DNA from: an uncultured Solirubrobacterales bacterium
GTDB taxonomy: Bacteria > Actinomycetota > Thermoleophilia > Solirubrobacterales > 70-9
Reading direction: 5' to 3'
Length of the DNA stretch: 64,000 bases
Assembly (NCBI GenBank): GCA_963841525.1
Contig: CAWJDA010000023.1
Location: 76,563-140,562, forward strand
The notes under the pieces were generated by a model. That model worked only from the letters and a program-made list of their open reading frames with translations, searched no databases and was not told where the DNA came from. Shown piece by piece: positions 1 through 8,460 of the stretch. Both the position numbers and the translations under genes were made by a program. Position 1 is the stretch's first letter. The number at the start of each line of letters is the position of its first letter.

Positions 1-292
1 GCGGGTCGTCGACGTGCCCGCGGTCCATGTAGAGCGAGTCGCACATCTCCCAGAACGCACCCTGCCGGCCGGACGCCTCGGCCGCGGCGTGCAGGGCGGG
101 TGCGCGCGGGTGCTTCGAGGCCATCGGGAAGTGCCTGAAGCAGAGTCGCAGCGGCAGCTCGCGCAGCCGCGCCCAGCCCGCGGCGCAGTAGGGACACCCG
201 AAGTCCGCGTAGACGATCGCCTCCACCCCATTGCCGGTGACATGGTCGTCCGGGCCGACGGGCGGTACGGCTGCACTGGTCAACTCGCTCAT
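1..292 (-). CDS. DsbA-family thioredoxin-fold protein (3' end off the window)
   Basis: Own translation from ATG at 292..290: MSELTSAAVPPVGPDDHVTGNGVEAIVYADFGCPYCAAGWARLRELPLRLCFRHFPMASKHPRAPALHAAAEASGRQGAFWEMCDSLYMDRGHVDDP. It carries a CPYC redox motif. Absent from the ORF track because it runs off the edge. Confidence 0.75.
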   Translation of the reverse strand, partial: MSELTSAAVPPVGPDDHVTGNGVEAIVYADFGCPYCAAGWARLRELPLRLCFRHFPMASKHPRAPALHAAAEASGRQGAFWEMCDSLYMDRGHVDDP

Positions 293-316
293 CGCCACGA
301 CGGTATCTTGCGACGG

Positions 317-1096
317 GTGGAAGGTCTCGTCGGGGAGAGGACGATCCGCGCCGGCCTCTGCGCGTCCGGAGTCGCTGCACTCGTGCTGGCGCTCGGGTTC
401 TTCCAGTCTGCTCACTGGGCCACCGACCTCTGGCCCTGGCCCGACACGCCGCTCTCGTTCATCTTCATCGCGTCGATCCTGGCGGCGATCGCTCTGCCGG
501 CGCTCTGGATCGGGGTGAGCGGCGAGCTCGCGGCGATCCAGGCCGGCGGCCTCGAGCTCTCGATCACCTATGGCGCGATCTTCGTCTATCTGCTCACCCT
601 GGCCGGCGACCCAGGGCAGCCGGCCCTTGGCCCCTACCTGGTCGCCTTCGGCGCGGCGGCGCTCTCCAGCCTCGTTGTCTTCCTCTGGAGCCGCCGGATC
701 CCGTGGCGCGACCGGCGCCCGATGCCATCGGTGGTCCGAGGCTCCTTCGCCTTCTTGGCTCTGGTGCTGGTCGCGGCGGGAACCGCCCTCGCCTTCGGCG
801 CCGACATCTTCCCCTGGGAACTGCGCTCGGAGACCTCGGTGATCTTCGGCTTCATCTACCTCGGCGCGGCGGTCTATTTCCTCTACGGCTTCGTCCAGCC
901 TCGCTGGTCGAACGCGGCCGGCCAGCTGATCGGCTTTCTCGCCTACGACATCGTCCTGATCGGCCCGTTCGTGGACCGCTTCGACGAGGTCACCGGCCGC
1001 CAACTGCTCAGCCTGATCATCTATTCGGCGGTCCTCGTCTTCAGCGGCGCACTCGCCTTCTACTACCTGTTCGTCAGCGACGAGACCCGGCTCTAG
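317..1096 (+). CDS. polytopic membrane protein, function unknown
   Basis: Part of ORF 14..1096 with several hydrophobic helices (LVLALGFF, FIFIASILAAIALPALWIG, IFVYLLTLAG and others). The upstream part of the ORF overlaps the divergent dsbA-like gene. In-frame TTG 308 or GTG 317 are the plausible starts. Confidence 0.6.
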   Translation: MEGLVGERTIRAGLCASGVAALVLALGFFQSAHWATDLWPWPDTPLSFIFIASILAAIALPALWIGVSGELAAIQAGGLELSITYGAIFVYLLTLAGDPGQPALGPYLVAFGAAALSSLVVFLWSRRIPWRDRRPMPSVVRGSFAFLALVLVAAGTALAFGADIFPWELRSETSVIFGFIYLGAAVYFLYGFVQPRWSNAAGQLIGFLAYDIVLIGPFVDRFDEVTGRQLLSLIIYSAVLVFSGALAFYYLFVSDETRL

Positions 1097-1212
1097 AGGC
1101 GACCCGCATCGCCACGCACGGAGCGACGCACGCAGGGAAAAGAGAGAAAAAAAAAGCGCACAGACACGCAGGCGACTCACGCAGGCTCGGCTCGTCGCGC
1201 ATCGCTGAGCCG

Positions 1213-1880
1213 GAAAAAAAAGAAAGAAAAGAAAAAGAAGAAAGAAAAGAAGAAAAAGAAGAAAAAGAAAAGTGAGAAAAGGAAGGAAAAGAAAAGGGAA
1301 AAGAAGAAGAAGAAAAAAGAGAAAGGAGAGAAGAGAGAGGAAGAGAGAAGGGAAGAAAAGAAAGAAGAAGGAGAGAGAGAAAGAGAGAAAGAGAAGAAGG
1401 AAAAGAGGATGAGAGAAAGAGAGAAAGAAAGAGAAGAAGAAGAGAAAGAGGGAGAGGAGGAGGAGAGGGGACGCGACTCGAGCCGCTCGCTCTCCACTAG
1501 CCGAGGAAGGAAAAGAGGGAGGAAAGGGGGAGGAGAAAAGAGAGAGACGAGCAGAGAGAGGGAGAGAAAAGAGAGAGAGGAGAGGAGGGGAGCGCGGAGG
1601 AGACGGGAGAGAAGGGGGGGAAAGGGGAGGAGAAAGGGAAGAGGGAGAGGTGAAAGGGGAGGAGGGAGAGGGAGAGAAGGGAGAGAGGGAGGGAGGGGAG
1701 AGGGAGGGGGGGGAGGGGGGAGAGAGGGAGGGGGGGGGGGAGAGAGGGAGAGGGGGGGGGGGGGGGGGGGGGGGAGAGGGGAGAGGGGGGGGAGGGGGAG
1801 AGAGAGGGAGAGGGCGACGGGGGGTACGGGGGGGGGGGAGAGGGTGGGGGGGGAGGGGGAGGTGAGAGAGAGCGGGAGGT
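1213..1880. repeat. aperiodic homopurine/homopyrimidine low-complexity tract, A-rich grading to G-rich
   Basis: The plus strand is almost only A/G. One short mixed island (1471-1502) interrupts it, and a second (1145-1212) lies just upstream. There is a 23-G run at 1752-1774 and an 11-G run at 1730-1740. No repeat unit is visible. Confidence 0.95.
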
Positions 1881-1899
1881 ATAGGGGGATGGAGCGGGA

Positions 1900-2359
1900 G
1901 AAGGTGCTCCATAGCCGAGAGCGCGTCGAAGATCAGGTTCGCGCCCGGGATCTCGCCCGGGTTCGGCGCGGCGTACGACCACTTCACCTCGCCGTGATCG
2001 ATCAGCACCAGCGAGCGGTTGGCGTGGCCGACGGCGTCGATCCAGGCGCCGTAGGCGCGGGAGACCTCGCCCTTCGGGTTGAAGTCGGCCAGCAGCGGCA
2101 TGGTCAGGTTGAGCTGCTCGCGAAAGGCCCGGTGCGAGTAGCTCGAGTCCACGCTGATCCCGACCAGCGTCGCGCCCTTCGACTCGATCTCGGGCAGGAC
2201 CTCCTGGTAGAGGCTGAGCTGACCGGTGCACACCGGGCTGAAGTCGAGCGGATAGAACGCGATCATCAGCTTGCGATCGAGGAAGTCGCCGAGCGCGACC
2301 GGGTTTCCGTCCTGATCGGGCAGCGAGAAGTCGGGTGCGCTCGTGCCGGCCTCGATCAT
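1900..2359 (-). CDS. peroxiredoxin (AhpC/TSA, Bcp/PrxQ-like); 3' end undefined because no stop codon follows
   Basis: Own translation from ATG 2359: MIEAGTSAPDFSLPDQDGNPVALGDFLDRKLMIAFYPLDFSPVCTGQLSLYQEVLPEIESKGATLVGISVDSSYSHRAFREQLNLTMPLLADFNPKGEVSRAYGAWIDAVGHANRSLVLIDHGEVKWSYAAPNPGEIPGANLIFDALSA. The frame then runs into the polypyrimidine strand. The ORF is not in the supplied track. Confidence 0.75.
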
Positions 2360-2373
2360 GTCGCTCGCCGGCG

Positions 2374-2643
2374 CTAGCGCCGCAGGCCCAGCTCAGCGAC
2401 CAGCGAGCGGTAGCGCTCCAGGTCGCTGCTCTCCAGGTAGCGAAGGATGCGGCGGCGCTTGCCGACCATCTTCAGGAGGCCACGGCGCGAATGGTGGTCC
2501 TTGCTGTGGGTGCGCAGGTGCTCGGTGAGCTCGTTGATCCGCTCCGTGAGCAGCGCGACCTGCACCTCGGCGGACCCGGTGTCCTCGCCCGACCGGCCGT
2601 ACTTCCCGATCAGCTCCTGCTTTCGGTCCTTGGTCAGCGGCAT
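2374..2643 (-). CDS. rpsO: 30S ribosomal protein S15
   Basis: [57 protein letters not shown]..., 89 aa, ATG at 2643. The upstream part of ORF 2374..3057 overlaps ribF and is not coding. Confidence 0.95.
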
Positions 2644-2663
2644 CGACGCAACAGGGTAGCGAT

Positions 2664-3560
2664 CTACCGCTTGCCCCTGTCCTCGTACTTCGCGAGGATC
2701 TCCCCCGCCTCGGCGACGTCCCTGTTCATCTGCGCGATCAGGTCCTCGACGCTCGGGAAGCGCCGCTCGCCGCGCAGCCGGCTGACGAAGGCGACACGCA
2801 GGTTCTGCCCGTAGAGGTCGCCGTCGAAGTCGATCAGGAAGGACTCGATCAGCAGTCCCCTGCCCGTCTCGAAGGTCGGCCTCACCCCCACGTTGACCGC
2901 CGCCGGGTGGCCGTTGGCGAAAGCGGCGTAGACGCCGTGGCCCGGCACGACCAGGCGATCGTCGGGAACGAGGTTCGCCGTGGGGAAGCCGAGCTCGCGG
3001 CCGCGGCGATCGCCCTCCACGACCTCGCCCTCCACCATGAACGGGGCTCCCAGGCACCGCATCGCCGCATCGACCTCTCCGGCGGCGACCAGGGCCCGAA
3101 TCCGGCTCGAGGAGACCGTCTCGCCGTCGACCTCGATCAGGGGCACGATGCGGGTCTCGAAGTCCTCGCGCTCGGCGAGCATCTGCGGCGTCCCCTTGGC
3201 TCTTGTCCCGAAGCGGAAGTTCTCCCCCACCGAGACTTTGCCGGCCCCGAGCTGCTCGACCAGGATCCGCGAGATGAACTCCTCGGCGGGGATCTTCATG
3301 AACTCCTTGTCGAACGGGATCACCACCAGCTCGTCGACCCCGAGCCCGTCGATCACGTCGCGCTTCACGTCGAAGGGCATGATCAGCTTCGGCGCCGCCT
3401 CTGGGTTGATCACGCTGAGCGGATGCGGGTCGAAGGTGAGCACGGTGTCCGCCTCGTCGATCACCGCCTGGTGACCCTTGTGAACGCCGTCGAAGACGCC
3501 GATCGCCACGTGGCGGTCGCGCGGTTCGGCGTCGGGGAGCTTTGTCACCTTGATGGTCAA
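2664..3560 (-). CDS. ribF: bifunctional riboflavin kinase / FMN adenylyltransferase
   Basis: 298 aa ORF with typical RibF N-terminus ([16 protein letters not shown]) and kinase half (GFPTANL). Sits in the conserved truB-ribF-rpsO context. Confidence 0.95.
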
Positions 3561-4362
3561 GTCAGGACAACCTCGGGTTGCAGATTCTCTCCATCCACGC
3601 GCGCGACCGCGATCAGCCTCCCCTCGTATGTGAGACGCACGTGCCTCGGGGGCACGTCGAACGGCTCCTCCACGGGGCGACCATGTCCCACACGGTCCGC
3701 CTCATCGTGGTCAAGCAGCCGCTCGGGGAGAAACTCCATCAATCGCTCGACGGAAACCTCCTCGCGGCCGCCGTCCGGCACTAGGAGGTCTCCGATCGCC
3801 GTCCGCCGCAGAGACTCGCAGTAGGCGTCCTCGAGCGTCTCCACCAACGTCCGGATATAGGTGCCCGACGAGCACTCGATCTCGAAGGTCGCGCGCTCCG
3901 CCATCCCGCTCGATCAGCTCCGCCCGGTAGACGTTCACCCGCCGAATGGGGGTCTCGACCGACTCGCCGCGGTGCGCCTTCCGATAGAGCCGCTCGCCAT
4001 CGACCTTGACCGCCGAGGTCATCGGCACGCGCTGTTCGATCTCCCCGGTCGGCAGCTCGAGCCGGTCGGGGATTCGGCCGGTCTCGGTGAGCTCGCCGTC
4101 GGGATCACCGGTGGACGAGCGCCAGCCGAGCCTCGCCGTGGCCCGATAGGTCTTCGGCAGCTCGAGCAGATAGCGCTGCAGTCGGGTCGCGCGGCCCAGC
4201 AGCGCGACCAGCAGGCCGGTGGCGAACGGGTCGAGGGTGCCGGCGTGGCCGATCTTGCCCCCGAACTGCCGCCGGAGCTCTGGCGACCACGTCGTGCGAG
4301 GTCACCCCGGCAGGCTTGTCGACCAGCAGCCCCCGGGCAGGGGTCGGCTCCCCCTCCGACAT
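3557..4362 (-). pseudogene. truB: tRNA pseudouridine(55) synthase TruB, split over three frames by two apparent +1 shifts
   Basis: N-terminus in ORF 4105..4362 (GLLVDKPAGVTSHDVVAR). The middle section begins in an unlisted reading frame (LRRQFGGKIGHAGTLDPFATGLLV) and continues into ORF 3711..4028 (SAVKVDGERLYRKAHRGE). C-terminus in ORF 3557..3904 (ERATFEIECSSGTYIRTLVE). Shifts lie near 4278-4282 and 3895-3905. Confidence 0.85.
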
Positions 4363-5702: not shown

Positions 5703-5877
5703 CGCTGGGCGACGATAACAGCAGATGCTCAAACAAACCCAAGTGCGCTAACAGAACGGACACGGCCGGGTTGCGAAGATCACAAGCTGCCCGATGTCGC
5801 TCTCACAACGGGCGGCCAGACGGCATCTGCGGATTGGTGATCGATCCCGGAGAGGGAATTTCTTGAGCTTCACCTCA

Positions 5878-6199: not shown

Positions 6200-8460
6200 C
6201 TACTCCAGGGTCTGCTCGACCTGCCGCGTCTCGAAGAACTCGAGGACGTCGCCCTCCTTGATGTCGGCGAAGCCGTCCAGCACGATGCCGCACTCCTGGC
6301 CCTCGTCGACCTCCTGGACGTCGTCCTTGAAGCGCCGCAGCGAGCCGACCTTGCCCGACCAGATGATGGTGCCGTCGCGGACGAGGCGAACGCTGGCGGT
6401 GCGAGTGACCTTGCCGTCCGTGACGAGGCAGCCGGCGATCGTGCCGACCCGCGAGGCCTTGAAGGTCTGCTTGACCTCGGCCTGGCCGAGCGCCTCCTCG
6501 ACCTCCTCCGGCTCGAGCAGGCCCTCCATCGCCGCGCGCAGCTCTTCCGTGACCTTGTAGATCACCGTGTAGGTGCGGATGTCGACGCCCTCCTGCTCGG
6601 CCGCGCGGCGCGCCTCGGCAAGGGGCCGCACGTTGAAGCCGATGATCACGGCGTCGGAGGCGGCCGCCAGCATGACGTCGGACTCGTTGATGCCGCCGGT
6701 CTGCGCGTGGATAACGTTGACGGGGACCTGCTCCTGCGGCAGCTTCGCGATCTCGTCCTGGAGCGCCTCCAGCGATCCCGAGACGTCGGCCTTGAGCACG
6801 ATGTTGAGCTCGTTGAGCTGGCCTGCGCTGGCCCTCTGGAAGACCTCCTCGAGGGTGACCTTACGGGCCTGGCGGCGGGCGAGCTGCTCGGTCTTCAGGC
6901 GGGTCTCGCGCTCCTGGGCGAGCTGGCGTGCCTTGCGCTCGTTCTCCACCACCTGGATGTGCTCGCCGGCCTCGCTCACTCCGTCGAACCCGAGGACCTC
7001 CACGGGCGTCCCGGGAGTGGCCTCGTCCACGCGCTCGCCCTTGTCGTCGAGCATCGCGCGGACCTTGCCCCAGACCGGACCGGCGACCACCGCATCGCCC
7101 ACGTGGAGGGTGCCCCGCTGAACCAGGACGCCGGTGACTGGACCGCGGCCAGGGTCGAGTTCTGCCTCGACCACCGCGCCGGAGGCGGGAGCGTCGGGGT
7201 TCGCGCCCAGCTCCTCGAGGTCGGTGACCAGCAGGATCATCTCGAGCAGGTTGTCTAGGCCGTCCTTGGTCTTCGCCGAGACGTCCGCATAGACGGTGTC
7301 CCCGCCCCACTCCTCGGGGTTGAGGTCCTGCTGCGCAAGCTCCGTGCGGACGCGATTCGGGTCGGCGCCCTCCTTGTCGATCTTGTTGACGGCGACCAGG
7401 ATCGGGACGCCGGCTGCCCGGGCGTGGTCGATCGCCTCGACGGTCTGCGGCATGACGCCGTCGTCGGCGGCGACGACGATCACGGCAACGTCGGTGACCG
7501 AGGCACCCCTGGCGCGCATGGCGGTGAATGCCTCGTGGCCCGGCGTGTCCAGGAAGGTGAGCGTCTTGCCGTCGTGAGCGACCTGGTAGGCGCCGATGTG
7601 CTGGGTGATCCCACCCGCCTCGCCGGCGGCGACCTGGGTCTGACGGATCGCATCGAGCAGCGAGGTCTTGCCGTGGTCGACGTGGCCCATCACGGTGACC
7701 ACCGGGGGCCGTTCGACCAGATCGGCCTGGTCGTCCTCTTCGGCGACGGGCTCCTCTACCTCCTCATCGGCCGTGGTGACGATCTCGACCTTGCGGTCGA
7801 ACTGCTTGGCGATCGACTCGACGGACTCGTCGGTAAGGGTCTGGGTGAGGGTCGCCATCTCCCCCTCCTTCATCAGAGCCTTGATCACCTCGGCGGCGGA
7901 GAGGCCGAGGCTCTCGGCGACCTCGCGAACGGTCGCCCCCGAGTTCACCTTGATCGGCGGCTGCTCCTCAGGCTGCTTCAGCTCCTTGTCACTGGGCTCC
8001 TCGAGCAGGGGGCGGCGACGTCGACCGCCGCGACGGCGCGGCGGTCGAGGCGGCGGCTGGGTCTTGGCGATGTGGTCACGACGCGCGGCCTGTGAGTCGA
8101 TCACGACGCGGCGGCGTCTCTTGGCCGGGCCCTTCTTGGCCGCAGCGGATGTGCCGTCTCCGGTCGCCGTCGGCGGGTTTTTGGCCTTTGTCCTGGTGCC
8201 TTCGAGGCCCCGTCGCTCTTCGTCTTCGCGGTGGCGGCCTGCTCAGCGGCCTTTGCCGCCGGCTTCGCCTTCGTGGCGGTGGCGGACGAGCCGGAGGAGG
8301 CGCCATCGCCGGAGCCCTTCAGGGCGGCCAGTGCGTCCGACTCCTCGACGCTCGACTGGGCGGCCTTCGCCTCGATCCCGGCAGCGTTGAGCGCCGCAAG
8401 GAGCTCCTTGCTGGTCAGGCCCTGGGCCTTCGCTATCTCGTGTACTCGCTTCTTCGCCAT
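6200..8460 (-). CDS. infB: translation initiation factor IF-2, with one apparent frameshift in the N-terminal low-complexity region
   Basis: ORF 6200..8104 has the GTPase core ([29 protein letters not shown]). ORF 8101..8460 has the IF-2 N-terminus ([21 protein letters not shown]). The main frame reads upstream as [34 protein letters not shown]. The join lies near 8185-8200. Confidence 0.9.

Follow-up and report, generated by a model that had tools for sequence, protein, structure and literature searches.

What is a tract of 770 bp, made almost wholly of purines on one strand, doing between two convergent protein-coding genes of a soil bacterium? The question arises in the genome (G+C 68%) of an uncultured Solirubrobacterales bacterium, from which one stretch of 64,000 nt (here called the window) was analysed as a whole. 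In it the tract lies between a gene encoding a membrane protein, on the plus strand, and a gene encoding a peroxiredoxin (prx), on the minus strand, the latter being followed on that strand by rpsO and ribF. An earlier note on the same DNA had described the tract and left two readings of it, a non-biological artefact or a genuine homopurine-homopyrimidine element prone to form H-DNA and G-quadruplexes (G4). The comparison with related loci argues strongly for the first. The tract is very likely a sequencing or assembly artefact and not genomic DNA, coming either from an aberrant nanopore read or from phantom sequence of the assembler that polishing would not have removed, and the true locus is very probably an ordinary spacer of 61 bp between the two convergent genes.

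S15 and the membrane protein, each looked up as an exact sequence, gave 20 loci from other assemblies, drawn from 12 metagenome assemblies at ENA, with contig names of the long-read style contig_N, and from six Logan short-read assemblies. A scan of the GTDB species representatives added 16 further loci and brought the related loci to 36 in all. The closest GTDB representative is MFD00822.bin.2.133, an uncultured Solirubrobacterales bacterium known from a Microflora Danica nanopore metagenome-assembled genome (MAG), and the species representative and most of the related genomes are Microflora Danica MAGs. The conspecific loci number 21, stem from at least 18 independent assemblies, both long-read and short-read, and are 97.4-99.7% identical to window positions 1-1136 and from 1907 onward. 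What lies between these two parts, window 1137-1906, is only 17 bp long in the conspecific loci, and the native intergenic region between the membrane-protein gene and prx measures 61 bp. The purine tract was found at the syntenic site in none of the 21 loci, each of which carries either the 61-bp spacer or a deletion allele that leaves almost nothing of it. Moreover, in none of the 36 related loci does the purine or the pyrimidine content of any 60-nt window reach 88%.

The comparison of the syntenic locus had been named beforehand, in the earlier note, as a check on the tract. Of the 21 conspecific loci, 19 have a short ordinary spacer, or the deletion allele, together with a complete prx, the kind of outcome by which that note would have a biological feature refuted. 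The product is of 149 aa (150 aa in the deletion allele) and the native C-terminus reads ...DALSG or ...DALSD, after which comes a normal stop. Of the remaining two, one is a contig whose end falls within the native spacer and the other a locus too noisy for a prx call. The peroxiredoxin of the relatives has Pfam PF00578/PF08534 on record. The exact sequence of the membrane protein occurs in 31 gene-collection blocks, each time beside dsbA and prx.

When the region is aligned to the native spacer it resolves into four overlapping passes over that spacer, all in direct orientation, with filler of A and G only between them (Table 1), and the native bases lost amount to two 1-nt deletions only. 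The two islands of mixed composition that the earlier note had seen within the tract are present (1157-1211 and 1472-1502); their identity had been missed, as they are extra, partly garbled direct copies of the native 61-bp spacer. The second pass reaches a local alignment score of 37 on the plus orientation versus 19 on the reverse complement. Fold-back (reverse-complement) re-reads were considered and rejected, since the spacer matches in direct orientation only, with reverse scores of 17-19 versus 37-128. In the third pass the stop codon of the native prx is repeated intact (CTA at 1497-1499, plus strand), but this copy is detached from prx. A hairpin, CGGCTC...GAGCCG, had also been pointed out; the sequence is there, at about 1189-1211 within the noisy second copy, but its fold is no better than that of shuffles (z = -0.73). 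The hairpin of the native spacer, with a z of only -1.66, was likewise rejected as something unusual.

The two 1-nt deletions, both private to the window, remove the stop codon of prx by turning CACTAG into CATAG (1911/1912) and CCGGAG into CCGAG (1916/1917). The suspicion that prx lacks its stop codon was well founded, and the frame runs stop-free through the tract at least to window position 1100. It meets no stop inside the tract because the minus strand there is pure C/T and unable to encode one. Differences private to the window were counted over 1,330 nt of flank (601-1136 and 1907-2700) against 15-19 relatives. All eight lie within 32 nt of the tract edges (1105, 1110, 1111, 1123 and 1912-1916); the four on the left fall in the first pass over the spacer, and none occurs in 601-1104.

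Judged against its relatives, the consensus of the window is imperfect, because truB and infB carry private frameshifting indels. In the truB gene (window 3557-4362, minus strand) two private +1 insertions (3898 and 4281) break the coding sequence into three frames. Its fragments each have 96-100% amino-acid identity to the intact 267-aa TruB of conspecific contigs, and the breaks are most probably indel errors of long reads that stayed uncorrected, not the mark of a pseudogene. In the N-terminal region of infB (minus strand) there are private deletions of 5 nt (8166), 8 nt (8181) and 1 nt (8639) relative to loci L002, L003 and L009, and the longest in-frame open reading frame (ORF) encodes 634 aa (6200-8104), compared with an IF2 of 757 aa in L002 and L009. 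Locus L003 has its own 5-nt deletion in infB (8193-8197) and is likewise split, into 130 and 634 aa; this stretch of infB either is recurrently error-prone or is a genuine hotspot of indels. Related material does include contigs whose quality is like that of raw reads: a conspecific one from the same ENA series (L012; ERZ25039462 contig_6419, 328 kb) is only 94% identical, with 28 gaps over 1.7 kb. This contig retains the native 61-bp spacer; it has no prx gene call, and its ribF and rpsO are called as a fusion.

The limits of the tract, set by the relatives, are 1137-1906, close to the 1131-1900 given earlier, and its plus strand is about 95% purine. Pyrimidines are found in the two islands and as about 20 scattered singles besides. 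Counted in 50-nt bins, the composition passes from A 32-34 and G 12-15 (1201-1300) to A 7 and G 43 (1751-1800). The G/(A+G) of the three filler pieces, which are 89-99% purine, is 0.28, 0.37 and 0.69, and the A-to-G gradient (Spearman 0.38, p = 7e-24) shows also as a rise inside each of the two long pieces. Runs of A reach A9 (1147-1155) and A8 (1214-1221), and runs of G reach G23 (1752-1774), G11 (1730-1740 and 1828-1838) and G8 (1706-1713, 1785-1792 and 1846-1853). From 2101 onward the purine fraction of 100-nt windows lies between 0.28 and 0.68 (mean 0.49, sd 0.05), none of them having 0.85 or more of purine or of pyrimidine, and the homopolymers of at least 8 in the 64 kb are all confined to the tract region. 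Chance comes nowhere near explaining such a composition. In its description of an aperiodic homopurine tract between convergent genes, with an A-to-G gradient, a G11 and a G23 and with no likeness elsewhere in the window, the earlier note was correct.

Its statement that the tract has no repeat unit, and is neither a microsatellite nor a CRISPR array, is also borne out. Tandem Repeats Finder (TRF) gave no consistent unit but 17 overlapping rows with periods of 1-110 and 61-80% matches, and with autocorrelation it detected no hidden periodicity beyond short-range alternation of A and G. A microsatellite or tandem-repeat array was ruled out for want of a definable head-to-tail unit. A CRISPR array was ruled out as well, the sole repeated element being the native spacer, in overlapping partial copies with 28, about 257 and 403 nt of filler between them. 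The alternations between A and G number 370 versus 282 +/- 14 expected (lag-1 autocorrelation -0.26), and a gradient of independent draws, as in a naive synthetic insert, was rejected since the A/G transitions are far too many. A search of window 1-3000 with Rfam covariance models gave no match at E <= 1. The search for promoters gave no candidate site, and that for terminators gave one weak terminator-like match (1156-1169, minus strand), which is below shuffle expectation.

Natural homopurine-homopyrimidine tracts that form H-DNA, and clusters of G-quadruplexes, are best known from eukaryotic genomes. The tract resembles them in having one strand of near-pure purine over hundreds of bases with many G-runs, and six canonical G4 motifs are found in it, all in the third filler (1605-1853), whereas the remaining 62 kb have none on that strand. 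It differs from them in that it has no excess of mirror repeats, has neither conservation nor an orthologue among the relatives, destroys a stop codon and stands, with no likeness elsewhere in the window, in a bacterial genome of 68% G+C. The longest mirror arm is of 17 nt versus 14.9 +/- 2.9 in block shuffles, 23% of which reach 17, so that no mirror-repeat symmetry beyond composition was found in this comparison. As to heritability, the tract is missing from all 36 related loci. The reading as a genuine H-DNA or G4 tract, the second of the two proposed earlier, is not supported because the tract is missing in relatives, its mirror symmetry is at shuffle level and the stop of a conserved gene is lost.

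The window, we infer, most likely comes from a nanopore-only metagenome assembly made with Flye and one round of Medaka, as for the Microflora Danica MAGs. For the long-read MAGs of that project, R10.4.1 nanopore reads were assembled with Flye 2.9.2 (--meta, --nano-hq) and the result was polished once with Medaka, short reads having no part in it (PMC12313526). In the output of long-read metagenome assemblers, among them metaFlye, regions that a single read or no read supports have been documented, as have false duplications (bioRxiv 10.1101/2025.04.22.649783). In the present case the draft contig would have taken the stretch from one or a few aberrant reads, or the assembler would have mis-stitched here. 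The signal in the stretch would have decayed to base calls of A and G only, with a composition drifting steadily from A to G, and the same approximately 40 nt of spacer would have been emitted four overlapping times. Other reads, which have no 770-nt insert, would align only to its edges, and polishing would leave an insert without coverage untouched. The alignment ends would be poorly polished, which would explain why raw-read-type errors, including the two deletions in the prx stop, are confined to the last 10-30 nt of both flanks. The step of origin may be the basecalling of a stalled or blocked pore, or phantom sequence of the assembler. The gradient is continuous over the three fillers and present within the long pieces, and one time-ordered process on a single read therefore fits better than three insertions. 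Calls of A and G only would fit a low, slowly sinking current, since these were reported as the two lowest-signal bases of the older R9.4.1 pore (PMC8486125).

A close parallel is the long-read phantom sequence described by Trigodet et al. (bioRxiv 10.1101/2025.04.22.649783). As there, the stretch is internal to a long contig and missing from the population, and it goes with a short false local duplication, a disrupted gene and consensus errors adjoining it. Unlike here, mapped reads (PacBio HiFi) demonstrated their cases, while the present one is drawn from comparison and likely concerns nanopore reads; moreover, a composition of A and G only with a gradient is not described there.

Several points weigh against explaining the tract as an artefact. 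Its status as an artefact is deduced from comparison with other assemblies, and the absence of the tract from other samples is compatible with a private, strain-specific insertion. A literature search on nanopore junk found no paper with this pattern of A and G only, bearing a gradient and stuttering. To our knowledge, the re-reading of 40 nt in direct orientation is not a textbook failure mode of nanopores. The poly-G tracts of other metagenomes presented below are, among the matches listed, mostly pure poly-G without duplication of the flanks, and are an analogy rather than the same artefact. In addition, the order of signals cited for A and G is that of R9.4.1 and not of R10.4.1 (PMC8486125).

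Contigs of metagenomes at the Joint Genome Institute (JGI) were scanned with a pattern of 80 purines, G14 and 80 purines, which matched at least 120 contigs. Among the matches listed, 97 of 120 come from three dataset series (Ga0179593 with 61, Ga0179591 with 19 and the Ga0137405-420 series with 17). These matches hold 130 tracts of at least 150 nt, of which 107 are internal to the contig and 108 exceed 85% G. The contigs (L037-L156) carry hundreds of bases of near-pure poly-G, some with poly-A or A/G junk. With the matches listed drawn from so few datasets, such purine tracts point to a technical, dataset-specific origin rather than a biological one; a literature search found the identifiers of these JGI datasets in no paper. 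The tract of the window is like this junk in being purine-only for hundreds of bases between normal-looking sequence, and some contigs have A/G-mixed tails of the same texture (e.g. L069, 2420-2640). It is unlike it in that most of the JGI tracts listed are nearly pure G, without an A-to-G gradient over several hundred bases and without re-reading of flanks.

If the tract were real, it would be a recent homopurine-homopyrimidine insertion private to one lineage, produced perhaps by runaway slippage or expansion of purine-rich sequence, or by a break repair that copied the flanking spacer repeatedly and added purine filler, and it could form H-DNA and G4. This is unlikely. The flanks are perfectly syntenic and hold partial direct copies of themselves, a pattern that templated-insertion repair can make; the site is naturally variable, with a deletion allele in three short-read assemblies and extra genes in two related species; and the tract, if real, holds the six canonical G4 motifs. 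However, not even the beginnings of a purine repeat are present here in any relative, slippage would have no unit to work on, and mirror symmetry is no higher than in block shuffles. The monotonic gradient over three separate fillers has no obvious mutational cause, the conserved peroxiredoxin stop is lost through two 1-nt deletions, and the private differences are found at the edges only, in a window that has frameshift errors in truB and infB. We also count against it that we know of no bacterial process that adds 260-400 nt of untemplated purines. A more particular course of events, that a break occurred in the hairpin-bearing spacer of one strain and a polymerase re-copied about 40 nt of flank repeatedly while adding hundreds of untemplated purines, is very unlikely. 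If it were true, a high-G+C actinobacterium would have a 0.77-kb tract prone to H-DNA and G4 and a peroxiredoxin fused to a tail rich in Pro, Ser, Leu and Phe.

An artefact could also be of another kind than the one favoured here, and although the artefact reading of the earlier note is supported in general, two types that it named, poly-G read-through and a simple synthetic insert, fit less well. In two-colour Illumina chemistry G is the dark call and A lights both channels, and fading or mixed clusters would give calls of A and G only that drift to G. Junk of this dark-cycle type, or other short-read junk, might have been assembled or used in polishing, and some JGI datasets, among the matches listed, abound in long poly-G tracts internal to contigs. 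Nevertheless we give this origin hardly any credence. The gradient spans about 650 nt, which is several short-read lengths, with no repeat unit to assemble on, and plain poly-G read-through fits poorly because the JGI poly-G contigs are near-pure G whereas the tract is mixed. Moreover, errors of the indel type, present in truB and infB and beside the tract, and the contig_N names of conspecific contigs point to long-read assembly, and the native spacer is present in short-read assemblies of the species. Least probable of all is an insert made after assembly, whether a synthetic or planted sequence or an artefact of editing or scaffolding. In its favour, the tract has sharp bounds and an artificial-looking composition and is the only one of its kind in the window, and the collections searched gave neither the junction nor certain proteins of the window: a 42-nt junction pattern had no match in GTDB genome contigs or JGI metagenome contigs, and in exact look-ups two ORFs inside or across the tract and four window proteins (RibF, a DHH protein and two more) were not on record. 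A simple synthetic insert fits poorly because it would be expected neither to hold three partial and garbled copies of the local spacer nor to bring errors into the 10-30 nt of native flank beside it, and the alternation of A and G is not that of a simple independent-draw gradient.

Table 1. Features of the region between the membrane-protein gene and the peroxiredoxin gene (window coordinates; reference, position in the native locus)
Feature	Position	Strand	Remarks
Membrane-protein gene, 237 aa, no Pfam family	383..1096	+	TAG stop 1094-1096; intact left flank
Pass 1 over native spacer (bases 1-40, up to ...ACGCACGCAGG; reference up to 77)	1097..1136		Alignment to native spacer
Filler 1, 28 nt (A 18, G 7, C 3), includes A9	1137..1164		Counterpart in no relative
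Pass 2, noisy direct spacer copy (reference 69-108), CACGCAGGCGACTCA...AGCCGGA, several inserted bases	1165..1214		Local alignment
Filler 2, purine, A-rich, about 257 nt, without repeat unit (1216-1472: A 161, G 93, C 1, T 2)	1215..1472		
Pass 3, near-exact direct spacer copy (reference 76-106), GCGACTC(G)AGCCGCTCGCTCTCCACTAGCCG	1473..1503		30/31 positions match, one inserted G
Filler 3, 403 nt, purine, mixed then G-dominated (A 119, G 266, C 10, T 8)	1504..1906		Holds G11, G23, G11
Pass 4 over spacer end (reference 94 onward), then peroxiredoxin gene (AhpC/TSA)	1907..2362	-	
Junction k-mers			Tract-bearing, e.g. GGACGCGACTCGAGCCGCTCGCTCTCCACTAGCCGAGGAAGG; native, CTCTCCACTAGCCGGAGAGCGCG

The site between the membrane-protein gene and prx shows variation of its own among the relatives. 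In three Logan short-read contigs (L017, L019 and L020) the part corresponding to window 1097-1916 reads CTCTAG-CAA-CCGGAGAG; in this deletion allele prx, which encodes 150 aa, shares 4 nt with the end of the membrane-protein gene. Because a natural deletion allele exists, the 61-bp spacer is dispensable and polymorphic in the population. The contig that terminates inside the native spacer (L014; ERZ25039580 contig_51072, 5,750 bp) does so at ...CTCTCCACTAGCCGGAGA, which is 2-4 nt from where the second and third spacer copies of the window break off into filler and is the same point where the spacer and deletion alleles rejoin. This end may be an assembly-graph break from a mixture of strains, or may reflect a feature of the site that disturbs reads. 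In two related Solirubrobacterales species the junction holds an additional ORF, named in each case from its visible motif: one of 283 aa with an HxHxDH motif of metallo-beta-lactamase type (L022, 4714-5565, minus strand) and one of 522 aa that is carboxyltransferase-like (L023, 4717-6285, plus strand).

Two further places in the window differ among strains. In seven conspecific contigs (L001, L004-L008 and L010) the similarity to the window ends just past ribF, at the ribF/truB junction (about 3560-3595), and other genes stand in the place of truB, for instance one whose Big_5/cadherin-like product has 788 aa. The truB of L007 is found at a distance of about 3.9 kb more, and the ribF/truB junction is a strain-variable insertion site. 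An intergenic segment of about 74 nt (window 5788-5861) is missing in L002 and L003 and partial in L009; from the gene order of the relatives it appears to lie between rbfA and the DUF503 gene.

The tract would thus be an example of the kilobase-scale junk that can stand in contigs of nanopore-only MAGs, where it creates false ORFs, takes away a real stop codon and offers motif scanners a false G4 and H-DNA hotspot. Its signature, partial re-reads of the flank, errors clustered at the edges and a drift in composition, could be used as a flag, and comparison against conspecific contigs resolves such findings quickly. As biology the locus would be unremarkable, with an ordinary 61-bp spacer between the membrane-protein gene and the peroxiredoxin gene.

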